DNA from: Abditibacteriaceae bacterium
GTDB lineage: Bacteria; Armatimonadota; Abditibacteriia; Abditibacteriales; Abditibacteriaceae
Length of the DNA stretch: 18,020 bases
Assembly: GCA_031372065.1 (NCBI GenBank)
Contig: JANMKN010000096.1
Location: 1-18,020, forward strand
Reading direction: 5' to 3'
The notes below the pieces were generated by a model. That model was not told the origin of the DNA. It worked only from the letters and a program-made list of their open reading frames with translations, and searched no databases. Position 1 is the stretch's first letter, and each line of letters starts with the position of its first letter. Of this stretch, positions 3,482 to 18,020 are shown one piece after another. A program made the position numbers and the translations under genes.

Positions 3482-3545
3482 GTAAGGGCGAACCTTGTGT
3501 TCGCCCCATAGCGTATCACAGGGCGAACACAAGGTTCGCCCTTAC
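3482..3545. repeat. REP-like inverted doublet (REPIN/BIME-like)
   Basis: The 25-nt GTAAGGGCGAACCTTGTGTTCGCCC (3482-3506) has a perfect reverse complement at 3521-3545. Each arm is itself a palindrome (GGGCGAAC-5nt-GTTCGCCC) with a terminal GTAA, a variant of the GTAG foot. Confidence 0.85.
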
Positions 3546-5120: not shown

Positions 5121-5777
5121 ATGAATAATCGCCGTCAGAAAATGCCATCGCCGCTGGAAATTGTCGCGGATTTTGTGGCTTTCCCCTTACGCGCTTTGTT
5201 CTTGGAAACCGAAGGCAGATTTGGACTTTCATCCTTGCGCGAAGAGCGCATGAGAATTGTTTGGCGTTTTTGTCTCGGACGGGTTTTAGATGTTGGGTGC
5301 GGGCCGGGCAATCTCTTTATTCGGGAATTTATCGGCACCCAAAACGGCGTGGGCGTGGACTGTTTTGCCTACGAAGGCGTGGAAAATGTGGTGCCCGATT
5401 TAACGCATTTGCCCTTTGAAAACGAAACTTTCGATACCGTGACTCTCATCGCTGTCGGCGGTCATATTCCTCGTTCACAGCGCGCCGCCGAGTTTCAAGA
5501 ATTAGCGCGCGTTTTGAAAAACGGAGGCCGTTTGGTAATGACCGAAGGTGAACCGGTTACGCAATATCTGGTGCATCAGTGGGTTTTCTGGCTGCACAAA
5601 CAACGCGGCACGCAAGATATGGATTCCGAGCGCGGCATGGAAAACGACGAAGAATTTTGTATGCCGCGAGGCGAATTATTAGGTTATCTCAACACGCCGC
5701 CGCTGCGTTTTAAGCGCCGCAAACGCTTTATGTGGCGCTTGAATAATGTTTATGTGGCGCAAAAAGAATCTTCCTGA
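5121..5777 (+). CDS. Class I SAM-dependent methyltransferase
   Basis: 'VLDVGCGPG' motif I, 'LPFENETFDTV', 'ELARVLKNGGRL'. The true start could be the ATG at 5142. Confidence 0.85.
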   Translation: MNNRRQKMPSPLEIVADFVAFPLRALFLETEGRFGLSSLREERMRIVWRFCLGRVLDVGCGPGNLFIREFIGTQNGVGVDCFAYEGVENVVPDLTHLPFENETFDTVTLIAVGGHIPRSQRAAEFQELARVLKNGGRLVMTEGEPVTQYLVHQWVFWLHKQRGTQDMDSERGMENDEEFCMPRGELLGYLNTPPLRFKRRKRFMWRLNNVYVAQKESS

Positions 5778-6823
5778 TGCTGTCTTTGAAATTTGCAAAT
5801 TATGACGAAAGTTGGCGCGCCCGCTGGGACGAATTTGCCGATTTACACGGCACGCTGTTTCACAAAATATCATGGTTGCAAACTTTACAAAAAAGTTTTG
5901 GTTATCAGGCGCGGCATCAATTGATTTTAGATGATAAAAACGAAATCGCTGCCGTTTTGCCACTCTGCATCGCGCGCAATTTGCGCGGTCAACGCGTCGG
6001 CGTTTCGTTACCCTTCGTGCATTTTTTGAATCCGGCGTGCCGCAGTGAAAAAACGCGCGATTTCCTCATTGCACAGTGCCCGAAATTGAGCCGCGATTTA
6101 CATCTGCACTATCTGGAACTGCGTTTGGATTATGAATTATGCGAAACGGTTGAAGCGGGCCGCAATAATGAAAATGTAACCTTTGTTTTGCCTTTGGACG
6201 GCGATGAAAAGGCTGTTTTGGCTTTAGCTTCGGGTGATAACCGGCGTCGCACGCGCCTTGTCTATCAAGGCGACTGGTTCGAAACGTCGCTTGATAAAGC
6301 GCGATTGCCGGAGTTTTACGAAGTCTATCGCAGGCGCCAGAAACAATTGGGTTCGCCCGCGCCTGCGTTGTCGTTTTTTGCCAATATTAGGGGGAAACTG
6401 CCGGAGAATGTGACGCTTCTGACGGTTGCAGATAAGCGACTGCAAAAAGTTGTGGGCGGAATGTTTTTATTGGCCGATGGCGCCACGTTGTATTATCATT
6501 GGGGTGCCACGCGGGTGGAATATAATGCCTATCATCTCAATCATTTTATGTATCGCGAAGCGATTCTCTTCTCGCTGCAAAAGCGATTTCGATTTTTCGA
6601 TTTAGGCCGTTCGCCGCGAAGCGAGCAGGGCGGAACTTACCGCTTTAAAGAGCAGTTTGGCGCGGAGCCGAAATCGCTTTTTTATTATCGTTTCGGCCAA
6701 CAGCCGCAGGATTGGCACAACGCGCAAAAAACGATGAAACCATTGATCGAAATCTGGAAAAAAACGCCAGCGTTTTTGACGGATGGCGCCGGGCATTATT
6801 TAATCGGGCGCGCTTTGCCCTAA
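5777..6823 (+). CDS. FemAB-like GNAT-fold acyl/aminoacyltransferase
   Basis: 'WDEF..GTLFHKISW..FGY', 'YLELR', 'LGSP', 'FDLGRS..GTYRFKEQFGAEP' resemble FemAB-related polysaccharide-locus proteins. TGATG overlap with the upstream gene. Confidence 0.82.
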   Translation: MLSLKFANYDESWRARWDEFADLHGTLFHKISWLQTLQKSFGYQARHQLILDDKNEIAAVLPLCIARNLRGQRVGVSLPFVHFLNPACRSEKTRDFLIAQCPKLSRDLHLHYLELRLDYELCETVEAGRNNENVTFVLPLDGDEKAVLALASGDNRRRTRLVYQGDWFETSLDKARLPEFYEVYRRRQKQLGSPAPALSFFANIRGKLPENVTLLTVADKRLQKVVGGMFLLADGATLYYHWGATRVEYNAYHLNHFMYREAILFSLQKRFRFFDLGRSPRSEQGGTYRFKEQFGAEPKSLFYYRFGQQPQDWHNAQKTMKPLIEIWKKTPAFLTDGAGHYLIGRALP

Positions 6824-6826
6824 CCT

Positions 6827-7492
6827 ATGAATCAAGAAGAATTGCGCTGTTTTTATGATGCAGAAGCGCGGCGTTGGGGCGATTCGGCGCGCACCGCACA
6901 ATATGTCAGCGGGGGCAATTTTCGCTTGTTGCAGAGGCGTCTTTTGGCGTGGACACGCAGCGCGCAACCATTAAAGATTTTAGATGCCGGTTGCGGAACA
7001 GGATTATTCAGCGCGCCTTTGACACGCCGCCATGAAGTGCATGGCGTGGATTTTTCTGATGAAAGTTTGCGTTTCGCTGCGCGGCATGGATTGAAAATTC
7101 GCAATGCCGACTTGAGGGCTTTGCCTTACGAAAATGAAGCCTTCGATTTAGTCTTGTGCATCGGCGTTTGGCAACATTTAGCGGAATGCGAGCCGGTTTT
7201 AATTGAGCTGTCGCGCGTTACGCGGCGCGGCGGTTTGGTCGTGGTCTCCACCATCAATCGCCATTCGGTTCAGCGCCGCGTTTTATCACACTTGTGGCAC
7301 CCCGCCGTGGCTGAGACTCTGCGTGCCTATAACGCGCCCGAATTGCAAAACGATTTTGAAAAATGCGCTTTGCAGGACATCGAATTTTTGAATTTATATT
7401 ATCCTTTGCCCTACGTTACACGGCGGCGAAAAACTAATTGGTTGCAAGATTTTTTCAGTTCGACGGTGGCGATTCGGGGCCGCAAACTTTAA
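6827..7492 (+). CDS. Class I SAM-dependent methyltransferase
   Basis: 'ILDAGCGTG', 'VHGVDFS', 'LPYENEAFDLV', 'ELSRVTRRGG'. Confidence 0.88.
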   Translation: MNQEELRCFYDAEARRWGDSARTAQYVSGGNFRLLQRRLLAWTRSAQPLKILDAGCGTGLFSAPLTRRHEVHGVDFSDESLRFAARHGLKIRNADLRALPYENEAFDLVLCIGVWQHLAECEPVLIELSRVTRRGGLVVVSTINRHSVQRRVLSHLWHPAVAETLRAYNAPELQNDFEKCALQDIEFLNLYYPLPYVTRRRKTNWLQDFFSSTVAIRGRKL

Positions 7493-7507
7493 GTTCAACT
7501 CTCGGTT

Positions 7508-8311
7508 GTGAGCGATTTGTTTTTTACTTTCGATGTCGAGGTTTACGCGCCGCTGCGCCATGACCGCGTTTTTTTGCGCGCTCAGGGCGAGGTATGGCAA
7601 AGCGTGTTGGAGCATTTACAGCGCGCCGCCGTGCGCACTACATTTTTCGTAACCGGTGAGTTTGTGGAAACCTATCCGGTGTTATTTGATGAGATGGTGC
7701 AAAGCGGACATGAAATCGCCTCGCATACCATGACGCACCGGCCTTATTTTTCGATTGGCGACAAAGAATTTGAAAATGAAATCGCGCGCAGCAAAAATTT
7801 TCTCGAAGACGTTTCGCAAACATCAGTTAGCGGTTTTCGCGCGCCGTTGGGGCAAATTCCCTCACACTTGGCGGCGCTTTTGAAAAAGCACGGTTACCAT
7901 TATGATTCTTCGGTTGCCGCCACGCATATTCCCGGCCATTTTCAGGCTTTAGGCGCGCCGCAGCGGATTTATCACGCCTCGTTAGAAGAAGTGCGGCGCG
8001 AAGATGAAAATTCTAATTTCTGGGAAATTCCCATCGCTGTCACTCCAAAAATTCCGCTGCCTTACGGCGGATTTTTTTTGTCGTTTATCGCGCCTGTGGC
8101 ATGGCGTTTTCCGCAAACGCAAAAACAATCGCACGTTATGTTTTCGCATCCGCACGATTTTATAGACATGAGAAAACAGGCTGGTTGTTATGCGTGGGAT
8201 AGATTCAAAATTACGCGCAATAATTGGCGAATGCTGGCGCATTTTTGTCGGCAACGGCAAGGCAGCGATGCGCGCTTATGCCAATTGCCCAAAGGCGAAT
8301 CATGTTTCTAA
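7508..8311 (+). CDS. Polysaccharide deacetylase (CE4/NodB-like)
   Basis: 'FTFDVE', 'TTFFVTG', 'GHEIASHTMTH', 'GFRAP', 'YDSS', 'EIPI..P..GG'. GTG start. Confidence 0.88.
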   Translation: MSDLFFTFDVEVYAPLRHDRVFLRAQGEVWQSVLEHLQRAAVRTTFFVTGEFVETYPVLFDEMVQSGHEIASHTMTHRPYFSIGDKEFENEIARSKNFLEDVSQTSVSGFRAPLGQIPSHLAALLKKHGYHYDSSVAATHIPGHFQALGAPQRIYHASLEEVRREDENSNFWEIPIAVTPKIPLPYGGFFLSFIAPVAWRFPQTQKQSHVMFSHPHDFIDMRKQAGCYAWDRFKITRNNWRMLAHFCRQRQGSDARLCQLPKGESCF

Positions 8312-9006
8312 CACCATTCGCCGCGCTGCCAATTCAAGTGCGACAAGTGTTGGGATTGCCGCGCGCCACAGCCCGCAAATTAGCCGCTGAATTGGCCGCG
8401 CTGCAATGTGATTTTTCGTTCGCGCAACTCGAAGAAACAGCAATTCCGTCTTACACGCATCGGTTGGCGCCCATTCGTTATTTGTTCTTGCGGCGTGTGC
8501 GCGTGGCACTTGATTTAACACGCAAAAATTTGCCCACGCGCAGTGAAATTTTAGATTTCGGTTGCGGTGCCGGGTTGATGACAATCGCTTTAAAACAGCA
8601 TGGTTTCAAGCCTGTTCGCTGCGATATTCGCCCGCAATTTTGCGCGCCTTCGGCACAGGCAATGCCTGGGGCCCAAATCGAAAACTTTGCCGAATTAAAA
8701 CGCTTTCGCGGCTGCGTGGCGTTGGATGTTTTGGAACATTTGAGCGAAAACGAATTACGCGACTTTGCCGCCGGTTTCGCGCCAGATGCTGTGTTGATTG
8801 TATCGGGGCCGACGGAGAATTTTCTTTATCAAATCGGACGACGCGTGGCCGGATTTAAAGGCGGTTATCATCAGCGCGATGTATTTCAAATTTTGCAATT
8901 CCTGCAAAGCGTTGGGTGGAATTTAGAATCGCCGCCGCGTTATATTTTTTCGCGCTGGTTTTGTCCGGCGTTTGTCGTTGTGGCTCTGCACAAAGGCGCG
9001 CTTTGA
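8302..9006 (+). CDS. Class I SAM-dependent methyltransferase
   Basis: 'ILDFGCGAG', 'ALDVLEHL', 'VSGPTEN'. Start placed at ATG 8302, which overlaps the deacetylase end, rather than at 8224. Confidence 0.82.
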   Translation: MFLTPFAALPIQVRQVLGLPRATARKLAAELAALQCDFSFAQLEETAIPSYTHRLAPIRYLFLRRVRVALDLTRKNLPTRSEILDFGCGAGLMTIALKQHGFKPVRCDIRPQFCAPSAQAMPGAQIENFAELKRFRGCVALDVLEHLSENELRDFAAGFAPDAVLIVSGPTENFLYQIGRRVAGFKGGYHQRDVFQILQFLQSVGWNLESPPRYIFSRWFCPAFVVVALHKGAL

Positions 9007-9026
9007 ATCGGGTAAAATTTCAGGCG

Positions 9027-10010
9027 ATGGAACACGAAAAAGCGGCGCGCATCGCCGTTGTCATTCCCTGCTACCAAGTGCGCGACACAATTTTGCAAGT
9101 CATCGCTGGAATCGGCCCGCAGGTCCAGGCGATTTATGTAGTGGACGATGGCTGCCCACAAGAAAGCGGGGCGCACGTCGAAGCCAATTGCCGCGATCCG
9201 CGCGTGGTGGTTTTGCGCTGCGAGAAAAATTTGGGCGTGGGCGGCGCGATGAGCAAAGGCTTCCGACAAGCGTTGCAAGACGGCGCTTTTATCGTGGTGA
9301 AAATGGATGGCGATGGGCAAATGGACGCTTCGTTTTTGTCGCGCTTGGTGCAGCCACTCTTGTCGGGCATGGCCGATTACGCCAAAGGCAACCGCTTTGC
9401 CGCGTCCTATCAAATGCGCCTGCAATTGCAACAACAAATGCCGCTTTTGCGGCGTTTTGGCAACAGCGTTTTATCGTTCGTGCATAAATCCATGTCGGGC
9501 TATTGGAATATCATGGACCCGACCAACGGTTACAGCGCCATTCATCGCGTGGCCTTGGAAAACATTGATCTCGAACGCGTGGCGCGCGGCTATTTTTTCG
9601 AGAACGATATGTTGTTTCAACTGAGCCTGATCGGTGCCGTAGTGCGCGATGTCCCGATGCCGGCGCGTTATGGCGAAGTGAGCAGCAACTTGCAAGTGCG
9701 TCGCGTGTTGTGGGAGTTTCCGCCGCTGATATTGAATCGCTTTTGCAAGCGTTTGTTTTACAAATATTTCATCAACGATTTCAATGTCGCGTCACTGGAA
9801 ATGCTGATTGGACTGCCTTTAGTTGCGGCGGGCACGCTGTATGGCAGTTACCGCTGGATGGGCGGCATTTTGTATAGCTGGGAAAACACATCGGGCACCG
9901 TGATGTTATGCGCTTTGCCGATTATTTTAGGTTTTCAATTGCTGCTTTCGGCGGTTAGCTACGACATCAACAACGTGCCTAAAGTGCCACTGAGCAGCGG
10001 ACTCGAATAA
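9027..10010 (+). CDS. GT2 glycosyltransferase, polyprenol-phosphate glycosyltransferase (DPM/GtrB-like) with C-terminal TM helices
   Basis: 'IAVVIPCY', 'VVDDG', 'NLGVGGA', DxD motif in 'KMDGDGQ', 'KGNRF', 'DPTNGY'. Two hydrophobic C-terminal segments. Start placed at ATG 9027, after the upstream stop. Confidence 0.9.
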   Translation: MEHEKAARIAVVIPCYQVRDTILQVIAGIGPQVQAIYVVDDGCPQESGAHVEANCRDPRVVVLRCEKNLGVGGAMSKGFRQALQDGAFIVVKMDGDGQMDASFLSRLVQPLLSGMADYAKGNRFAASYQMRLQLQQQMPLLRRFGNSVLSFVHKSMSGYWNIMDPTNGYSAIHRVALENIDLERVARGYFFENDMLFQLSLIGAVVRDVPMPARYGEVSSNLQVRRVLWEFPPLILNRFCKRLFYKYFINDFNVASLEMLIGLPLVAAGTLYGSYRWMGGILYSWENTSGTVMLCALPIILGFQLLLSAVSYDINNVPKVPLSSGLE

Positions 10011-10014
10011 ACGA

Positions 10015-11223
10015 TTGCAAACCAACTTTATGCGCGATTATTTGCGAAAATTCATTCAAAATTCGTGGGCCGTTTTTATTTTTATTTTGTTATTCGATGG
10101 CGCTTTGCTATGGAAAACAGGCCCGGCAGCGATTGCCGCCGATGCGAAATGGTATGCTGATGCGGCGCATCAACTGGTGGCGTTGCAATTTAATTTTTCA
10201 ACTTATTTTTCCCAAATCCAAAGCCCGATTTCGCCGGTTTTTTATATCACTTTCGTGACGCTCGTTGCCTTATGCCAAAAGCTGCTCGGCGCTTATTGGC
10301 TGCAAGGCGTTTTGCTGGTGAATGTGGGCGCTTTGGCTTGTAGCGGAACGCTCGTTGTGCGCTTGGTATTGCGATTAACGAAGCAAAAAAGCGCGGCCTT
10401 TATCGCTTTGCTTTTGTTTTTATCGTGCCTCGAAATGTTCAATTGGGCGCGCTTTGTTTTGACCGATACGATTTTTATGGCGCTATCGTGCGCGCTATTT
10501 TATAGTCTTGCGCGCGCCGTCACCGCTGAAGTGCCCCAAACGGCCAAAAAACACGCGTTGCTTGCGCTGGTTTTGCTTTTTTTAGCGCCTTTTAGCCGTC
10601 CGACGGGCGTAATTTTGTTTCCGATTGTCGCAGTTTTGTATTTCGCCCGCATCGTAGAAAAAGCGAGGATAATAAATCGTCGGCCACTGCTGTTGGCCGT
10701 TATCGGATTCTTATTTTTTATCAGCGTGGCCGATGCGTATTTGATGCAAGACATTCGGCGCTGGCCGCTGCCCGGCGCGGAAGCGTTGCGCTTGCCGTAT
10801 TATGCGAAGTTGTATCACGGAGGCGTGATGATAAATGCGCGGCCCGAAACGTATGCCGCGCCACCGCAATCGCTGTTTGAGTTTTTGGCGCTAAATGCGC
10901 GCCGCTTGGTTTATTTTTTCGCGTTTTGGTCGTCGAAGGGCTACAGTCGCGGGCACAATTTGGCGCTGGCCGTTTTCTTTGTGCCGGTGTATTTTCTATC
11001 GTTAAAGGCGCTCATAAACGGGCTACGGCGATGCAGCAATTTAGCGCATGAAGCGGAAACGGCGCTACTCATGGCGTGTGTATTTGTATTGGGCTTTGCG
11101 TTTTTCCACGCGCATACCGAAATTGATTACGATTGGCGTTATCGCTTGCCGGTTCTGCCGCCGCTTATTTTTATCGCGGCGCTCGGTTTTGCCTCGCGCG
11201 GGGCCGTTTTGAAAGCACAATAG
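10015..11223 (+). CDS. Multi-pass membrane protein, probable GT-C fold glycosyltransferase (PMT/ArnT-like)
   Basis: Many hydrophobic helices. 'DAKWY' in the first loop, 'LTDTIF', 'SRPTG' and C-terminal 'WRYRLP' are typical of GT-C proteins. Adjacent to the GT2. Start may be ATG 10030. Confidence 0.68.
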   Translation: MQTNFMRDYLRKFIQNSWAVFIFILLFDGALLWKTGPAAIAADAKWYADAAHQLVALQFNFSTYFSQIQSPISPVFYITFVTLVALCQKLLGAYWLQGVLLVNVGALACSGTLVVRLVLRLTKQKSAAFIALLLFLSCLEMFNWARFVLTDTIFMALSCALFYSLARAVTAEVPQTAKKHALLALVLLFLAPFSRPTGVILFPIVAVLYFARIVEKARIINRRPLLLAVIGFLFFISVADAYLMQDIRRWPLPGAEALRLPYYAKLYHGGVMINARPETYAAPPQSLFEFLALNARRLVYFFAFWSSKGYSRGHNLALAVFFVPVYFLSLKALINGLRRCSNLAHEAETALLMACVFVLGFAFFHAHTEIDYDWRYRLPVLPPLIFIAALGFASRGAVLKAQ

Positions 11224-11295: not shown

Positions 11296-13971
11296 ATGAA
11301 GAATTCTTACGTTGTTTTAACAGCCGGCGCTTTATTAAGCGTCTTTTCCTTGCGTGTGGCCGCTTTGGGTGCCGGGACAGAAAAAAAATATGTTGCGCTG
11401 GCCCCGGTGTCGAAAACAGTGCCGAAAAAAACTGTATCGAAAGCTTCTTCCAAGCCAACGGCGCAGGAAATCAGAGCGGCTAATGAAAAAGCGATTCACA
11501 AGTTTCTTGATGATCGCTGTTTGAGTTGCCACGACACCGAAACGCAAAAAGGCGGGCTGGACTTAGAAAAATTGAAGTTCGATTTGAACGAGGCGCGCAC
11601 TTTTGAAATGTGGGTGAAAATCCACGACAAAGTGCGCGATGGGCAAATGCCGCCACCCAAAAAAGAGCAGCCGACGCCGCAAGAACGCGCCGCTTTTAAA
11701 AATCGCCTCGCGGGCGCTTTAATTTCAGCCCAAAACCAAACATAGGGCCTCAGTGGGCGCGCGGTGTGGCGCCGCTTGAATCACTACGAATACGAAAATA
11801 CCGTGCGCGATTTGCTGAGTTCTCCGTGGCTGCAACTGAAAAATATGTTGCCCGAAGATGGCGAAGCGTTTCGTTTTAACAAGGTCGGCGAGGCGTTAGA
11901 TGTGTCGCACGTCCAACTTTCGCGTTACCTGCAAGCCGCCGATTATGCCTTGCGCGAAGTGATGGCAAACAGCCTGACGCAGCCGGAAAAAACCGTCAGA
12001 AAGTTCTACACGCGCGATGAAGGCGCCTTTGCCGGGGCGTATGATGTCGGCCCGGAAGTGCGCTCGACGTTTCCGGTTGTCGGTTCCAAAGAAGACCAAG
12101 CACACCTCAAGCCGCCTTTGAGCGTGGGCGACAAAGACCCTAAGGTGCGTGAAGAAGAAGGCGTCGGCGTGGTTCTTAGCACCTACGAACCAACCGAAAT
12201 TCGCTGGTCAAAGTTCCGCGCGCCGCGCGCTGGTCATTATAAATTGCGCTTTATGACCAACACGGTTTGGGTCGGCCCGAAAAACGAAAAACAATGGTGG
12301 GTGCCCAATTACGCCAATTTGTCGGAAGGACGGCGCAACGAACCAATTCTGATTTATTCAGATCGCCCGCCGCGCCTTTTGCGCTATTTGGGCAGTTTTG
12401 AAGCGACTCCTGAAGCCAAAGCCAACGAATTGGATGTATGGCTGCAAGCGGGCGAAAGCATCCGGCCCGATGCGGTGCGCTTTTTTCGCCCGCGTCCCGG
12501 TTCGATGCGCAATCCGTGGGCGACGCCCGAAGGTCAGCCTGCCGTTTCGTTTCGTTGGATGGAAGCCGAAGGCCCGCTGTTCGATTCGTGGCCCACGCCC
12601 GCGCAAAAATTGCTCTTTGGCGATTTGCCATTGAAACAAAACGAGAAAGACAAAACCGTGGAAGTTGTTTCCACAAATCCACAAGCCGACGCCGAAAAAT
12701 TGTTGCGCGGTTTCCTGCAAAAAGTCTCGCGCCGCCCCATAAATGAAGCGGATGTCAAGCGGTTTTTGCCGGTTATCAGCAAAGCGCTGGCTGATGGCTA
12801 CTCGTTTCAAGATTCGATGATTGCGGCGTATTCGGCGGTTTTGTGTTCGCCGTCGTTTTTGTATCTCGAAGAAAAACCGGGGCCGCTCGATTCGTATGCT
12901 TTAGCTTCGCGCTTGTCGTATTTGCTGTGGAATACGGCGCCGGACGAGGCGCTTTTGAAGGTAGCGGCCAGCGACCAACTGCGCAAGCCCGATGTTTTGC
13001 GGGCGCAAACCAATCGCTTGTTGGACGATAACCGCTCGCAGTTTTTTGTGGATGCGTTTTTGGATTACTGGCTTGATTTGCGCAAAGTCAACAATAACGA
13101 CGCTGATGTGACGCTGTATCCCGATTATCAACTGGACGATTTATTGGTGAATTCGTCGGTGGACGAAACGCACGCTTTTTTCTCCGAACTTTTGAAAAAG
13201 AATTTGCCGGTGAAAAATATCGTGTCGTCGGATTTTGCAATGCTTAACGAGCGCCTCGGCACCCATTATGGCATTGCTGATGTGGTTGGCAACGCCATTC
13301 GCCGTGTGTCACTGGCGCCCGATTCGATGCGCGGCGGTTTGATGACGCAGGCCAGCGTTCTGAAAGTGACGGCCAACGGCACCACCACTTCGCCGGTTTT
13401 GCGTGGCGCGTGGATTATGGAGCGCATTTTGGGTGAGCCGCCACCGCCGCCGCCGCCCAGCGTGCCCGCAGTTGAACCCGACACGCGCGGCGCTCATACT
13501 ATCCGTGAATTGCTGGACAAGCATCGCTCTATCGAAACCTGCGCCAATTGCCATCGCTACATTGACCCGGCAGGTTTTGCTTTGGAATCCTTCGATGTCA
13601 TGGGCGGCTGGCGCGAGAATTATCGCGCGGTTGCCAACGGCGACGGCAAGTTTCAAAAAATCGAAGGCTATGGGCACAACGGCGATGTTTTCAAGATTTT
13701 CGCAGGTTTGCCGGTAGATGCCACCGGACAACTTCCCACAGGCGAAGCGTTCAAAGATGTGCGCGAATTGAAAAAACTGCTTTGCCAAGATGATCGCAAA
13801 TTGGCGCGCAACGTGGCGAAGCAAATGACCATCTATGCAACGGGCGCGCCGGTTCGCTTTGCGGATCGTCCGAAACTCGAAGCTATTCTCGACCGCGCCA
13901 AAGCCAGCGATTATGGCGTGCGCGACTTACTGCACGAAATCGTGCAAAGCGACTTGTTTTTGAAGAAGTAG
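11296..13971 (+). pseudogene. PSCyt1 + DUF1587/DUF1595/DUF1592/DUF1588/DUF1585 cytochrome c protein interrupted by an in-frame TAG at 11743-11745
   Basis: ORFs 11296..11745 and 11764..13971 share a frame (offset 468). Read-through gives ..[30 protein letters not shown], a DUF1587-like motif. Also signal peptide, 'CLSCH', 'LASRLSYLLWNTAPD', 'TSPVLRGAWI', 'CANCH..IDPAGFALESFD'. Confidence 0.8.
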
Positions 13972-14030: not shown

Positions 14031-15398
14031 ATGAAAAAATCTGCTCCTCCCTCTGTTTCGATGCCGAATGTCACCACGGGCCGCGCGATTCATCGTCGCC
14101 GCTTTTTGCAGGGCGCGGGTGTGCTGCTTGGTTTGCCGATTCTCGACGCGATGGTGCCCGCTTTCGGGCGCGCGGCGTGGGGCGCGGAAAAGAACGAGGC
14201 GGTGGCTGCCACCGAAGGCACGCCGCCGCGTCGCATTTTGGGCATTTGCAACAACTTGGGTTTGGTGCCGGATCGTTTTTTCCCCGATGAAAAATCCGTC
14301 GGACGCGGCTATAAATTGTCGCCGTATTTGCAGAATTTGGAAGACCACCGCGACGATTTCACGGTTTTTAGCGGCGTTTCGCACCCTGATGTGGACGGCG
14401 GGCATCCGGCGGACAACTGTTTTCTCACCGCAGCGCCGCATCCGGGGCGCGGCGGCTTTCGCAACACCATTTCGCTCGACCAATACGCCGCCGAGCGACT
14501 CGGCCACCTAACGCGTTTTCCTTCGATGACTTTGGGCGTCAACGTCTCGCAAGGTCAGCGCAGCTTATCGTGGACGGGTGGCGGTGTGCTGATTCCGTGC
14601 GAAGAAAAAGCCTCCGAGGTTTATAAACGCTTGTTTTTGCAGGGCACCAAAGAAGAAGTCGCCGCGCAAGTGCGCCGCTTGCAGTTGGGGCAGAGCATCA
14701 TGGATTCCGTCGCCGGGCAAGCCAAAGATTTGCAACGCAGCGTCGGCCCGCGTGACCGCGAACGTCTCGACCAATATTTCACCGGCGTGCGCGAACTCGA
14801 ACAGCGCATGACCATGTCGCAGGAATGGGAAAACAAGCCGAAGCCGAAAGTGACGGCGCCGATGCCAATTGACCCGCCCAGCCCACGCGCTTACATGGAC
14901 AAAGTGAAGCTGATGTATGACATGACGCGCCTCGCTTTTGAAACCGATTCGTGCCGTTTCATTACTTTGCTGCTCGATAGCGTCAGTTCGCCCGCGCTGG
15001 AAATTGATGGCAAAAACCTCTCGGACAGCTATCATAACCTGTCGCATCACGGAAAATCGAAAGAAAAACTCGACGAGTTAAATACCATTGACGAGTTGCA
15101 CATGAAGATGCTCGGCGACCTGTTTGGCGGCTTGAAAGGCGTCAAAGAAGGCAACGAAAACCTGCTGGAACGCAGCATGATTCTTTACGGCAGCAACCTC
15201 GGCAACGCCAACACGCACGTCACCACCAACCTGCCGATTATCTTCGGCGGCGGCGGCTTCAAACACGGCCAGCACCTCGCTTTTAACCGCGAATACAACT
15301 ACCCGCTGCCCAACCTGTTTGTCAGCATGATTCAACGCCTCGGCATCGAATCCGACAAATTCGCGTCAAGCACCGGCACCATGCGCGGTTTGGCGTAA
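14031..15398 (+). CDS. DUF1552 (HXXSHH) family protein, Tat-exported
   Basis: '[21 protein letters not shown]' Tat-like N-terminus, 'ISLDQ', '[12 protein letters not shown]', the HXXSHH motif 'YHNLSHHG', '[22 protein letters not shown]'. Usual partner of DUF1592/1588 genes. Start could be 14061. Confidence 0.92.
15334..15398 (+). repeat. Repeat copy 0: the live 3' end of the DUF1552 gene
   Basis: AACGCCTCGGCATCGAATCCGACAAATTCGCGTCAAGCACCGGCACCATGCGCGGTTTGGCGTAA, encoding [20 protein letters not shown]. Confidence 0.95.
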
Positions 15399-15425
15399 TC
15401 AAACGCCGAAAGGTGAGAAGTAAAA

Positions 15426-15803
15426 ATGAATCTGAAGGCCAAAATTGTCTTGTGTATTAGTGTGAGCGTAGCATTGGCTTGCTACATGGTTTTTCTCTAC
15501 TCGCCCTATGCGCATCTCACGAGTCTTCAAAGGTGTTGGTTAGGCCTTACTCCAGCCTTGTTCGTCAGTTACGGCCTGATATTCATATGGAAGTCTAAAG
15601 AACAAAGAAAAGGGTCCTTTGTGAGTGCCGTAATAGGAGCCATTATGTTCTTTTTGCCTCTCGCAATGCGCACTTGGGGAAATCCTTCGCCGGAGCAAAT
15701 GGAAAAAGTGACTTTCGCGATTTTCTTGTTGCCACTGGCCTACTTTTGGTTTCAAAAGCGAAAGCAGAAGGCAAAATTTCCTGACAGTCCTGTCGTGCAG
15801 TGA
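15426..15803 (+). CDS. Cargo ORF 1: hypothetical ~4-TM membrane protein
   Basis: 125 aa, four hydrophobic segments, basic C-terminal tail. AAGGTGAG lies upstream. Fills the space between repeat copies 0 and 1. Confidence 0.7.
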   Translation: MNLKAKIVLCISVSVALACYMVFLYSPYAHLTSLQRCWLGLTPALFVSYGLIFIWKSKEQRKGSFVSAVIGAIMFFLPLAMRTWGNPSPEQMEKVTFAIFLLPLAYFWFQKRKQKAKFPDSPVVQ

Positions 15804-15812
15804 GAAATTTCA

Positions 15813-15862
15813 AATCCAACAAGTTCGCCAGCAGCACCGGCACCATGCGCGGACTGGCGTAA
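15813..15862 (+). repeat. Repeat copy 1 of the DUF1552 3' end (50 nt)
   Basis: AATCCAACAAGTTCGCCAGCAGCACCGGCACCATGCGCGGACTGGCGTAA ([15 protein letters not shown]). Confidence 0.95.
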
Positions 15863-15885
15863 GAAGTTAGGTTTACGTCCCTGAT

Positions 15886-16293
15886 GTGAAGCGATTTAAA
15901 CACCTTTCGCGGCGACGCAAACAGTTTTTGGCTGTTATTGCGCTGGTGTTCGTTGTTGCTTGCGTCTCTGCGGGTAAGAAACTCGCAGAATTACGGGATG
16001 AATTAATGGTAGATAATTACGCAAGCTACCTAAAGTGCGTGTATTTGCCAGAACAGAGACACTTAACCGGAAAATGGCCTTCCGATTTGAGTGGTCTGCC
16101 TCAGTTTGTTAAAAATGAGAAAACAATGAGCGCCGACCAAAACTTAGACGATTTCATCTTGCGATTTCACGCTGACAATTATGAGGGGTTTGAACCAGTG
16201 AAAATCCAAAAAGATGGCGGGAACGAAATTTATACTTTCAACATTCGCTTGAAAGGCCGCAAAAAGAAGTTTCAGTGGATGGCTACCAATTAA
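15886..16293 (+). CDS. Cargo ORF 2: hypothetical protein with an N-terminal membrane anchor
   Basis: 135 aa, GTG start. Basic N-terminus then 'FLAVIALVFVVACVSA'. The TAA stop overlaps the start of repeat copy 2. Confidence 0.68.
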   Translation: MKRFKHLSRRRKQFLAVIALVFVVACVSAGKKLAELRDELMVDNYASYLKCVYLPEQRHLTGKWPSDLSGLPQFVKNEKTMSADQNLDDFILRFHADNYEGFEPVKIQKDGGNEIYTFNIRLKGRKKKFQWMATN

Positions 16294-16356
16294 CGCCTCG
16301 GCATCGAATCCGACAAATTCGCCAGCAGCACCGGCACCATGCGCGGCTTGGCGTAA
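16292..16356 (+). repeat. Repeat copy 2 of the DUF1552 3' end (65 nt)
   Basis: 60/65 identical to 15334-15398. All 5 differences are synonymous in the DUF1552 frame (GCG TCA to GCC AGC; GGT to GGC). Confidence 0.95.
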
Positions 16357-16367
16357 AGGAATTTAAT

Positions 16368-16838
16368 TTGTTAGAGCGTAGTCAAAAGCAAAATCAGACA
16401 CGCCGAAATAGTTGGCTGTTTGCTGCTCTAACTTGCGCTATTGTTTGGCGGTTGCCAGCCATTGAAGAGTGGCGTGCTGATCTCGCTCAAGACCGCCTGT
16501 ATGTGCGAAATGAACTTTCGGAGCCAATCGCGAAGACTCGTATTTTATTTTATGGCTATGGTGGAGGAGGCGACCCAGAGTTTCCAAACCATGAGCTTGT
16601 GTTTAGAAATGTGCCGGGCAACGATGCACGCTGGCAACACTTCGAGCCTAAGTGGGGCAATGGCGACTCAGGAAGATATTTTAAAATAGAGGGAGTTACA
16701 GCCAGCGGCAGGAAAATTGGTAATGCGAAAGTTTTTGAGCAACCAGAAACTCATGGCCCAATTCTCGATTTAGGATTAGGCGCAAGATTTTATATTACGG
16801 TTAGGTCGGATGGCATACTTGATGTGCAGCCAAATTGA
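16368..16838 (+). CDS. Cargo ORF 3: hypothetical protein with an N-terminal hydrophobic segment
   Basis: Start re-placed at TTG 16368, 7 nt after AAGGA (16356-16360), giving 156 aa MLERSQKQNQTRRNSWLFAALTCAIVW.. The track's 16275 start reads through the repeat out of frame. Confidence 0.62.
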   Translation: MLERSQKQNQTRRNSWLFAALTCAIVWRLPAIEEWRADLAQDRLYVRNELSEPIAKTRILFYGYGGGGDPEFPNHELVFRNVPGNDARWQHFEPKWGNGDSGRYFKIEGVTASGRKIGNAKVFEQPETHGPILDLGLGARFYITVRSDGILDVQPN

Positions 16839-16841
16839 AGG

Positions 16842-16883
16842 AAATTCGCCAGCAGCACCGGCACCATGCGCGGACTGGCGTGA
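16842..16883 (+). repeat. Repeat copy 3 of the DUF1552 3' end (42 nt)
   Basis: AAATTCGCCAGCAGCACCGGCACCATGCGCGGACTGGCGTGA ([13 protein letters not shown]), 40/42 identical to copy 1. Confidence 0.95.
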
Positions 16884-16926: not shown

Positions 16927-17361
16927 ATGCGTTTTTCGTTGTTAGATCTCCTTATTGGAATCGGATGTGGAACCGCGCCGGGAGCGTGTGTAGGCTTTTT
17001 TATTGCGGGTTTATCAGGTCATAAACATTTGGCACTGGTGATGGCTCTATCACTTGCTTTAGTTAGTTATTTTCTAATTACGCCCTCAATTTACCGGTGG
17101 TTTCATTTGCGCTCGTTGGTAGTTCCGCGTTGTCCTCACTGTCACGAAAAGAACCGCTGGTATTGGTATGAGAAGGCCAAGGCTGATTGGCCGCACGACG
17201 TAATCATGTGCGCGACTTGTAAGAATACTCTGGAGCTTTGGTATGAAGTTCCTCAAGACGCAGAAATTTCCACAACTATGCCGAGTTTTCAGCTTTTATG
17301 GCCTCAATCTTGGGGACGCTGGCGCATGATTGCTGACAAGAAACAAGACCATAGCTCATGA
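16927..17361 (+). CDS. Cargo ORF 4: two TM helices plus a probable zinc-ribbon domain
   Basis: 144 aa, two hydrophobic N-terminal segments, then CPHC..CATC. Confidence 0.68.
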   Translation: MRFSLLDLLIGIGCGTAPGACVGFFIAGLSGHKHLALVMALSLALVSYFLITPSIYRWFHLRSLVVPRCPHCHEKNRWYWYEKAKADWPHDVIMCATCKNTLELWYEVPQDAEISTTMPSFQLLWPQSWGRWRMIADKKQDHSS

Positions 17362-17373
17362 CTAATCAAACCA

Positions 17374-17409
17374 AAGCCCGCGCTTTTGAAAAAATGCGCA
17401 GGCTTTTTT
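17374..17409 (+). terminator. Intrinsic terminator, imperfect copy of 17914-17950
   Basis: AAGCCCGCGC-loop-GCGCAGGCTT plus a T-tract, with one stem mismatch. Confidence 0.75.
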
Positions 17410-17492
17410 GTTTGCGCTAAAGGCATCGGGCTAAAATAAAGTATGCCTGAACTGAGTCGGTAACACATAACCAAAACGGAGAGGAATCAATC

Positions 17493-17894
17493 GTGAAAAA
17501 AACGCTGCTGTCTTGCCTTCTATGCCTTGCTATCTTCGGAGTAACAGCTTACAATCGGGCCGCGCCTGCTAAAGAAACCACCACGAAACCGCAAGCGAGT
17601 TCACTGCTGCGTAAGCGTGAAATGGCGGCACATAACGCTTGGGTTATGCAGAGTTACATGGAAATGAGAAAAATCAGGCTCGGTATGACACGAGCGCAGT
17701 TGCTCAAGGTTTTTAGCACCGAAGGTGGACTATCCACCCGCACGCAAAGAACTTACGTTTACCACGATTGCCCCAATATAAAAGTGGATGTTAAGTTCCG
17801 GCCCGTCGGAAAAATTGATCGTTTTTGGGAAGGGCCACAAGACGTAATTGTCAGTATTTCCAAGCCCTATTTAGCTTTAACGATTCTTGATTGA
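17493..17894 (+). CDS. Hypothetical secreted protein, with a BamE/SmpA-like 'GMT' motif
   Basis: GGAGAGG Shine-Dalgarno before GTG. Signal peptide MKKTLLSCLLCLAIFG. 'IRLGMTRAQLLKVF' motif. Confidence 0.75.
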   Translation: MKKTLLSCLLCLAIFGVTAYNRAAPAKETTTKPQASSLLRKREMAAHNAWVMQSYMEMRKIRLGMTRAQLLKVFSTEGGLSTRTQRTYVYHDCPNIKVDVKFRPVGKIDRFWEGPQDVIVSISKPYLALTILD

Positions 17895-17913
17895 TTCCAA
17901 CCAACGCAAACCC

Positions 17914-17950
17914 AAGCCCGCGCTTTTTGAATAAAGGCGCGGGCTTTTTT
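17914..17950 (+). terminator. Intrinsic terminator
   Basis: Perfect stem AAGCCCGCGC / GCGCGGGCTT followed by a T-tract. Confidence 0.85.
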
Positions 17951-17985
17951 GTGCCAGAACCCCCTGCCCAGAGGGCGCCCGCCGG

Positions 17986-18017
17986 CCCTTCCCCTTGTAA
18001 CGGCAAAAGGGGAAGGG
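17986..18017. repeat. Polypyrimidine/polypurine inverted repeat, possibly a dispersed palindromic element
   Basis: CCCTTCCCCTT (17986-17996) pairs perfectly with AAGGGGAAGGG (18007-18017). It is at the window edge. Confidence 0.55.
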
Positions 18018-18020
18018 AGA

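Follow-up and report, generated by a model that had tools for sequence, protein, structure and literature searches.

How does an ordinary gene come to be followed by several partial copies of its own 3' end that differ from the working end only at silent positions? The question is raised by a window of 18,020 nt (the whole stretch of DNA analysed, from an Abditibacteriaceae bacterium), in which a DUF1552 (HXXSHH) gene is trailed by three such copies, which we name stubs. The spare copies are most likely former working ends of the DUF1552 gene, displaced on import of DNA from relatives. This class of event is already published, as long target duplication, as sequential displacement and as an enzyme-free style of gene gain, and with the class known the surprise to a specialist is low. 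The new details are joins at the stop codons of the cargo genes and the occurrence of the family of one cargo gene, ORF2, in Rhs toxin loci.

Layout of the locus

Five small, foreign-looking cargo genes are stacked behind the DUF1552 gene, and the separators between them are either end-stubs or copies of a terminator-like hairpin (Table 1). The array continues past stub 3, a part missed in the earlier note, with ORF4 and ORF5 each followed by a hairpin copy. The inserts measure 0.41-0.50 kb each, with a cargo GC of 0.43-0.47 versus 0.57 for the DUF1552 gene, and the contig stops 70 nt beyond the array. A misassembly is unlikely, because contigs from public runs span four of the joints (live end/ORF1, ORF1/stub 1, stub 1/ORF2 and stub 3/ORF4) with 0 differences and at least 31 letters on each side; they come from four runs of one study, one of which may be the source sample. 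The upstream partner gene is interrupted by an in-frame TAG at 11743-11745, at a position that three relatives read through. Because this gene carries a stop, the operon may not be under selection now. Separately, codon usage shifts over the last 300 nt of the DUF1552 gene.

Table 1. Features of the DUF1552 locus, in positions of the window.
Feature	Position	Strand	Description	Evidence or composition
Upstream partner gene	11296..13971	+	planctomycete cytochrome c + DUF1587/1595/1592/1588/1585	
DUF1552 (HXXSHH) gene	14031..15398	+	anchor; last conserved gene of the operon	Pfam PF07586, E 1e-80; GC 0.57
Live 3' end of DUF1552 gene	15357..15398	+	GCG TCA allele	comparison with G002
Cargo ORF1	15426..15803	+	125 aa, hydrophobic; stop 9 nt before stub 1	GC 0.45
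Stub 1	15813..15862	+	about 50 nt, left edge ragged	
Cargo ORF2	15886..16293	+	135 aa; stop overlaps stub 2 by 2 nt	GC 0.43
Stub 2	16292..16356	+	65 nt; 60/65 identical to live end	
Cargo ORF3	16368..16838	+	156 aa, TTG start; stop 3 nt before stub 3	
Stub 3	16842..16883	+	42 nt, TGA at end	
Cargo ORF4	16927..17361	+	144 aa	
Terminator-like hairpin, copy 1	17367..17411	+	5 nt past ORF4 stop	
Cargo ORF5	17493..17894	+	133 aa, 130-nt leader	
Terminator-like hairpin, copy 2	17895..17952	+	matches the sequence directly 3' of the gene in G002	

The live end and the stubs differ only silently

The four 42-nt copies, ending at 15398, 15862, 16356 and 16883, all encode one 13-residue peptide, as the earlier note had claimed, and the variants it listed (AAA/AAG, GCG/GCC, TCA/AGC, GGT/GGA/GGC, TTG/CTG and TAA/TGA) are exact. 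Across the 14 codons shared by the live end and three stubs there are 8 variable columns that require at least 9 changes, of which 0 alter the peptide. The peptide is kept in the frame of the gene, and no other frame or strand conserves one. Silent changes make up only 29-31 of the 126 possible single changes. Simulated neutral decay, put forward as a check on the claim, gives a probability of 0.002-0.006 that the 4 stub-to-stub changes are all silent, and with 9 simulated neutral changes all are silent in at most 1 of 400,000 cases. If the null is made fairer, with selection on the live copy and decay of the stub, the probability stays low for stubs 1 and 3 (0.005-0.012), and the result is weaker for stub 2 (0.049-0.085). 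The left edges of the stubs differ, giving lengths of 50, 65 and 42 nt. A change of GAC to AAC at the left edge of stub 1 had been described as the sole non-silent one; it is so with the edge that was chosen for this stub, and because of that choice, as extending 3-6 nt to the left adds two more. The broader claim, that the copies diverged in a way that respects the reading frame, survives: in-place duplication followed by decay is rejected both at the locus and genome-wide.

Relatives, the empty site and the origin of the alleles

The DUF1552 gene has orthologues in 5 relatives, at 79-87% amino-acid identity, and also in G002. G002 is the closest relative, a different species and not a strain (79% complete, about 89% identical in the gene), and it represents the empty site: a terminator-like hairpin comes almost directly after the gene stop. 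Here, this hairpin sits 2.5 kb downstream of the gene, in two copies. The downstream neighbour of the gene differs at each of the 6 orthologous loci, and the 1.0-9.2 kb available at them contain no stubs. A second empty site is found at another locus with stubs (C90), for which the cargo is located elsewhere in the congeneric G003. G003 has stubs of its own with other cargo, behind 2 of 8 genes checked.

Over 62 nt the end of the DUF1552 gene matches G002 exactly; 7 differences follow in the last 34 nt, whereas the stubs have 3-4, which agrees with the description of the live copy as the odd one out. The GCG TCA pair of the live end is present in G003, and the live end carries silent variants that are donor-like, resembling G003, in what may be a short tract. 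The proposal that the copies arose as alleles in other strains is supported. Of the 13 variant codons, 11 are found in one or more of the 6 live orthologues, but a live allele matching a whole stub is absent; in an alignment of the relatives' DUF1552 ends, where each remnant was expected to match an intact allele, the nearest live allele still has 2 differences in 42 nt from a stub. Sharing of single codons is weak evidence, because each codon has only 2-6 silent choices.

The same cargo was not found behind the DUF1552 gene of any relative by blastn and tblastn against the orthologous loci, and the same searches against these loci and the genome itself matched stubs alone. Pattern scans for donors yielded 1 metagenome and 5 genome loci, each of which has a single match. 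Contigs of the four runs contain no alternative allele, the joints that skip cargo being diverged paralogues at low likeness (run X4, with a share of 0.07, counts as no evidence on alleles). Altogether, the orthologous loci, the genome itself and these contigs yield no donor, intermediate allele or population variant, and no donor sequence from beyond a cargo stop. A match downstream of the gene in G003 (75% over 52 nt, E 0.001) was rejected, as that genome's own end does not confirm it. As no relative has a whole stub as its live end or the same cargo behind this gene, we strongly infer, and do not directly observe, that the cargo came in with a donor's gene end.

The pattern recurs across the genome

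A downstream end-stub is found for 24 of the 3312 genes of the genome, while internal control probes taken 150, 300 and 450 nt inside genes find 2, 1 and 2 genes with a downstream copy. Stub plus cargo recurs at about 20 other genes, with stub left edges at 20-125 nt. Genome-wide, 102 of the 155 changed codons are silent, compared with null means of 0.20-0.40, and this share is reached in 0 of 5000 and 0 of 600 simulations. At 52 sites that differ between live end and stub in 7 other loci, the base in G002 is that of the stub at 27 and that of the live end at 20, which is not the live-biased pattern that decay of the stubs predicts.

The cargo stop lies within 30 nt of the join in 12 of 25 cases genome-wide versus 6.7% at random, and at the DUF1552 locus all five cargo stops are within 9 nt of the repeated target. 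Joins near cargo stops are seen again in G003 and G100. Such joins may reflect either selection for co-transcription or a mechanism. For gene starts, 5' probes 0-90 nt in detect 7, 6, 4 and 1 genes upstream versus 2, 6, 3 and 3 downstream, a signal from 13 genes several of which are signal-peptide paralogues, and it mirrors the 3' signal weakly.

How the array may have formed

The array was probably built by homology-anchored import with an imprecise second join, each new end and its cargo pushing the old ends downstream. In a donor, a small gene would already have stood behind the stop. A fragment of donor DNA would pair with the resident gene by ordinary homologous recombination, which provides the anchor, and its far end would join imprecisely a few dozen bases inside the end of the resident gene, so that the old end becomes a stub and nothing is lost. 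Three such rounds, and two more that duplicated the terminator, would give the observed order, with the newest unit adjoining the gene; existing stubs may also act as short second arms, so that whole blocks stack. The survivors are likely filtered: short diverged repeats would resist looping out, and joins just past the cargo stop would keep promoterless cargo genes on the operon transcript. No function is predicted for the stubs themselves. We infer this route, since the searches turned up no donor that combines such a stub with such cargo. The 62 nt of the live end identical to G002, followed by 7 differences in 34 nt, are explained by a very short tract of donor DNA no less well than by a long anchor. 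The genome has ComEC and DprA families, which do not show competence because they also match in most control genomes (10 and 11 of 14, respectively).

A possible but rather unlikely route is that a fragment with part of the gene end plus cargo circularises and a single crossover duplicates the shared end; in a variant, the circle pops out between two stubs. Either way, each stub would be a donor/resident chimera. This would give a duplication without a special join, and a crossover close to the stop would agree with the short stretch of the live end that resembles G003. In the E. coli experiments described, recircularised DNA left similar partial gene-end duplications in 56 of 60 clones, although longer ones, of 109-950 bp (PMC3240628). 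Our stubs of 42-65 nt fall below that range. Stubs of this length are short for RecA. Moreover, the live end and stub 1 have their longest common block to the right of GCG TCA, where a crossover would presumably keep the resident codons in the live gene, which is not seen, and no joint that cleanly skips a cargo gene occurs in the contigs of the four runs (contigs drop rare variants). Plain in-place duplication, with copies identical at birth and ordinary drift thereafter, is very improbable. The cases of long target duplication described by Furuta, Abe and Kobayashi 2010 (PMC2853133) do have near-identical repeats, and some stubs in our genome are nearly identical to their gene while others have decayed, nonsense changes included. 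At the DUF1552 locus, however, this explanation requires that 14 codons took 9 silent changes and 0 non-silent ones; if the stubs record successive states of a single lineage, several changes would probably also have had to revert. The corresponding null is rejected genome-wide, where G002 sides with stubs as often as with live ends. In-place duplication is thus rejected as the sole cause, and it can hold for individual near-identical stubs.

Site-specific recombination, with the gene end as attachment site or the cargo as integron cassettes placed by an integrase from elsewhere in the genome, is improbable. On contig C351 the genome does encode a genuine integron integrase (TIGR02249, 419 bits), accompanied by its own attC array, and attC arrays are present on contigs other than that of the DUF1552 gene; the cargo genes have the size of cassettes, lack promoters and end where the join lies; and stub 1 is a partial look-alike, with attC-like spacing and 8 nt in common with the start of the genome's attC, a match created by its two left-edge changes. 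Yet an adjacent integrase and attI are absent, and no site of the window passes an attC scan or matches the genome's attC family: stub 1 has no extra-helical base and is not among the 22 sites that pass, and attC geometry is missing from stubs 2 and 3 and from the live end. Of 25 joins, 3 have the core motif nearby against a background of 2.6%, and of 25 cargo heads, 1 contains the partner motif, for which the background is 2.4%. The left edges vary, the pattern occurs at 23 unrelated genes, and no attC array surrounds the cargo relatives inspected. The attC reading of stub 1 as a general mechanism was rejected on the scan and the motif counts, and classical integron cassettes are largely refuted. 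The least probable explanation is an RNA or DNA structure or binding site that keeps the repeat, with the silent pattern as a by-product. A similar stem can be folded in 4 of 4 copies, and the minus strands of stubs 1 and 3 give z of -2.7 and -2.4; the remaining 6 of 8 folds give only -0.7 to -1.2. No Rfam family is found on the stubs, the three matches far below threshold all lying on terminators. The peptide is conserved solely in the gene's frame, and the same silent bias is seen in the stubs of 22 other genes, which have no sequence in common; this genome-wide result makes a structural explanation unnecessary.

Comparison with known systems

The import reading that we favour has close published relatives. 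Long target duplication, in the cases described (PMC2853133), similarly involves a small insert without mobile-element genes, an empty site in a relative, and flanking direct repeats above 30 bp and of variable length, here 42, 50 and 65 nt in the stubs and about 45 nt in the case of the terminator; our inserts are below 20 kb and have no mobile-element genes. Most of those published cases are in naturally competent species (PMC2853133). They comprise single inserts of restriction-modification genes between near-identical repeats, whereas our locus has five stacked inserts, diverged alleles and a repeat that is a coding end or a terminator, and none of the five cargo proteins belongs to the restriction and modification genes on which that survey is based. 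Sequential displacement arrays at T6SS and Rhs loci, proposed by Kirchberger et al. 2017 (PMC5361080) to arise via homology-facilitated illegitimate recombination (HFIR), are alike in that a conserved anchor admits each new module at the front, older ones shift back, orphan 3' ends remain and no integrase is involved; of the cargo families here, at least one is also seen in Rhs loci. In that description a variable toxin tip is displaced, while here it is the invariant C-terminus of a non-toxin protein. HFIR combines one homologous arm, as would the route proposed here, with one imprecise join at 3-10 bp of microhomology; in the experiments reported it generally deletes about as much as is inserted and does not duplicate (PMC3240628), whereas here the resident end and terminator are kept and duplicated. 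Events of the deletion type would leave no stub and are hence invisible to a stub scan. The integrase-free hotspots beside conserved genes of Oliveira et al. 2017 (PMC5635113) share differing neighbours and turnover by housekeeping recombination; their model, as given, is a replacing double crossover at two flanking genes, and it predicts no stubs.

Among 17 proteins of the window scanned with Pfam, no recombinase was found, and the contig has no PF00589 match. Integrative elements that reconstitute the 3' end of a protein-coding target gene also bring a replacement end with silent variants and displace the old end. Such elements carry an integrase of their own and have a fixed att core. Here, both a fixed att boundary and an own recombinase are absent, and the three left edges differ. 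The literature searched, which included few subscription papers, has next to nothing on this exact architecture and nothing relevant on the clade.

With four time-ordered alleles, an empty site and a genome-wide count, the locus documents past gene gain without an integrase with unusual clarity, and the displacement model proposed for toxin loci gains support at an ordinary gene. The test for silent-only differences allows stubs to be used, in single genomes of uncultured bacteria, as a marker of past allele import.

Cargo genes

None of the five cargo proteins has a Pfam, NCBIfam or PADLOC family above cut-off. ORF2 is a candidate orphan immunity protein: 3 of 6 relatives of its family are in Rhs toxin loci, 2 of them directly after related C-terminal domains. 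A cognate toxin for ORF2 was not found in the genome, nor an Rhs link for ORF1, ORF3, ORF4 or ORF5. We consider it quite unlikely, if worth stating, that Abditibacteriaceae and related phyla have a gene-boundary-aware, integrase-free capture that cuts or joins incoming DNA at the cargo stop and just inside the resident end, with any operon tail acting as an integron-like array that banks orphan immunity genes against the Rhs toxins of neighbours; the precision of the joins at cargo stops is evidence that plain HFIR does not explain. Searches returned no relatives of ORF1, and one weak relative of ORF5 (in G005). ORF3 is intact, because its relatives share the same C-terminal end; its Atlas matches are clusters without a name (0.91-0.92), a lead only. 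For ORF4, the relative in G100 is likewise found directly behind a gene-end stub.

Array behind the DUF1552 gene

The last 42-65 bases of the DUF1552 gene are repeated three times downstream of it, and the gaps between the copies and the 1.1 kb past them hold five small ORFs, all on the gene's strand, with GC 0.43-0.47 versus 0.57. We call the 3' end of the DUF1552 gene itself the live end, the spare copies stubs 1-3 and the small genes cargo. The order is gene, ORF1, stub, ORF2, stub, ORF3, stub, ORF4, hairpin, ORF5, hairpin, the hairpin being a terminator-like element present in two copies; the contig ends 70 nt past the last one. Contigs of four public runs, all belonging to a single study, reproduce four of the joins without differences and extend at least 31 letters to either side of them. 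A scan of the proteins of the window and its contig finds no local recombinase.

Features of the array and additional observations in the window, its own genome (G000) and relatives
Feature	Location	Observation
DUF1552 gene	window 14031-15398	PF07586; last conserved gene in the window
Stubs 1, 2 and 3	window, ending at 15862, 16356 and 16883	
attC-like spacing in stub 1	window 15810-15874	8 nt common to the start of the genome's attC
Contig-terminal repeat	window 17981-18020	REP-like family, on at least 15 other contigs
Inverted repeat	window 3482-3545	perfect, 25 nt, between the first two genes
Intervening genes	window 5121-11223	methyltransferases, GNAT, polysaccharide deacetylase and glycosyltransferases between two cytochrome/DUF operons
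In-frame TAG	window 11743-11745	interrupts the cytochrome c / DUF1592-family partner gene; read through in three relatives, hence possible damage to the operon in the window's own genome
DUF1552 orthologue	G002:C16:121789-123144	closest relative; matched in several frames (frameshifts or consensus errors)
Integron	G000:C351:1-3902	integrase (TIGR02249, 419 bits) and an array of at least six attC sites of one family
Possible stacked alleles	G000:C368 near 12536-13135	the start of the cargo that separates live end and stub resembles that of the gene past the stub; a single downstream gene thus seems to be stacked here as two diverged alleles
CRISPR-like array	L109 4950-5775 (G003:C194)	29-nt repeat, 2.4 kb downstream of a gene-end stub
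Rhs C-terminal domain	L115 1025-1824 (minus); L116 (minus); L117	unnamed domain of Rhs proteins; FWGHG motif, later Cys; an ORF2-family gene follows

Silent differences between the gene ends

Over the 14 codons shared by the live end and the stubs, eight columns vary and the peptide is constant, as it is in none of the five other frames. The silent pattern is real, and the statement in the earlier note that the copies differ only at synonymous positions is borne out over these codons; its single non-synonymous change, placed at stub 1's ragged left edge, is less definite, as the non-silent count varies with the edge chosen. If all change were neutral, four all-silent changes would have P 0.002-0.006 and nine at most 1 in 400,000. 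Under a fairer null, in which the live copy is selected and the stub decays, stubs 1 and 3 have P 0.005-0.012 and stub 2 has 0.049-0.085. The live end differs from stubs 1-3 at 7, 5 and 7 positions and the stubs from one another at 3, 2 and 3; serial snapshots of one lineage would probably require several reversions.

The locus in relatives

The DUF1552 protein family is found in 15 of 41 genomes, and six have an orthologue of the window's gene. These six loci have six different downstream neighbours; with 1.0-9.2 kb available downstream, none has a stub, and the window's cargo is at none of them. In the closest relative, G002 (84-93% per 100 nt), the hairpin lies within about 30 nt of the stop, whereas its counterparts in the window are 2.0 and 2.5 kb downstream: the G002 locus is an empty site. 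The live end is identical to G002 over 62 nt, after which 7 of 34 positions differ. Over the last 42 nt, G002 has 4, 3 and 4 differences from stubs 1-3 and 7 from the live end; stub 1 has 2 from another relative, G010, and the GCG TCA pair of the live end is present in a congener, G003. Of the 13 variant codons, 11 are present in at least one live orthologue, the exceptions being GGT and TGA, and no orthologue matches a whole stub, the check that the earlier note had proposed.

Gene-end stubs across the genome

The survey took in 3312 ORFs with a length of 600 nt or more; the end of 31 of them is matched within 5 kb downstream, and 24 are left after a paralogue filter. The signal is specific to gene ends: probes placed 150, 300 and 450 nt inside the gene give 2, 1 and 2 cases, and the upstream control gives 4. 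The 5' mirror is weak. For the codon count we used 25 of 33 rows (23 genes), having dropped five with a paralogous upstream protein and three that were ends of whole ORFs; two long stubs were retained, stub 3 was manually given a length of 42, and the short rows on contigs C94 and C286 may be other repeats. The silent share of changed codons is 102/155 (0.66), or 89/141 without the DUF1552 locus; pure decay gives 0.20-0.25 and the fairer null 0.30-0.40, and no simulation reached the observed value. Eight stub loci were compared with three congeners. At the seven with a G002 orthologue, the G002 base is the stub's at 27 of 52 differing sites and the live end's at 20. For one of them, on C90, G002 has the site empty, and the cargo that goes with it is found elsewhere in G003; the six remaining G002 loci show no empty site and their neighbours differ. 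Behind two of the eight genes G003 carries its own stubs, with other cargo; one of these stubs contains a nonsense change, which shows that decay occurs as well.

Joins and proposed route of insertion

The joins lie at cargo stop codons. In the window the gap from stop to stub is 9, -2 and 3 nt for stubs 1-3, and from stop to hairpin 5 and about 0 nt; it is a few nt at both G003 stubs and likewise in G100, a genome of another family in the phylum. Gaps of at most 30 nt occur in 12 of 25 survey rows versus 101 of 1500 random points. ORF3 and its closest relatives end at the same residues and ORF3 is therefore not clipped; ORF2 may be clipped by a few residues, judging from a C-terminal cysteine pair that four of its six relatives have and it does not. 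Selection probably accounts for much of this placement, because a join past the donor's terminator would silence older promoterless cargo. A mechanism beside selection is possible; the boldest reading, a capture route that recognises gene boundaries and stores up immunity genes, is doubtful.

The proposal that the copies are former functional ends that arrived with a donor's cargo is supported, but no direct donor match was found; the finding of silent-only gene-end copies itself is confirmed. The repeats, with their variable edges, are observed directly; we infer that end and cargo were imported together from relatives, in a reconstructed order of events, and probably by a homologous anchor on one side and an imprecise far join inside the old gene end. 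Sequential displacement works alike: Kirchberger et al. 2017 (PMC5361080) propose an anchor-plus-illegitimate displacement for immunity arrays in which displaced 3' ends remain. The array also fits the structural criteria of a long target duplication, as in the survey by Furuta et al. 2010 (PMC2853133) of insertions that lack a mobile element and have long target duplications of variable length, though it is not an R-M insert; Oliveira et al. 2017 (PMC5635113) report many integrase-free hotspots beside conserved genes. The literature covered, a library that has few subscription papers, holds no closer description of the exact layout. The main rival to the anchor and imprecise join, with perhaps a third of its weight, is single-crossover entry of recircularised DNA: PMC3240628 shows E. 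coli gene-end duplications of 109-950 bp for this route, and describes homology-facilitated illegitimate recombination in E. coli as generally deleting.

Placement of the array by integron cassettes is improbable. On contigs other than this one the genome does carry attC arrays and an integron integrase (copies of the C351 family also on C2, C109 and C365), and stub 1 partly resembles an attC site; the array outside stub 1 and genome-wide motif counts do not support it, and the array is neither an integron nor a toxin array. The two left-edge changes of stub 1 create the match to the attC start, so ORF1 could once have been a cassette and have been clipped at its attC site. A preprint reportedly describes cassette insertion outside att sites. 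In-place decay of a duplicate, set against the silent shares simulated for it, is very unlikely, and a structural constraint keeping the repeat, set against a peptide constant in one frame, slightly more so.

Cargo genes

None of the cargo proteins reaches curated cut-offs in Pfam, NCBIfam or PADLOC. Of 300 genomes of the phylum, 6 have a relative of ORF2. Three of these relatives lie in Rhs loci (TIGR03696) and three elsewhere; two of the former stand directly behind related C-terminal domains (36% over 84 aa). That Rhs domain was not found in the window's own genome, which makes ORF2 a candidate orphan immunity gene. The domain of L115-L117 has a weak DUF6345 match and, with the ORF2-family gene, is a candidate new toxin-immunity pair. 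A search for ORF1 relatives found none, and ORF3 has a single relative in the phylum, at an operon tail without a stub. The best relative of ORF4 is in G100 (L119, G100:C444), where a gene end, a low-GC ORF and a decayed stub precede it; the layout thus recurs in another family of the phylum.
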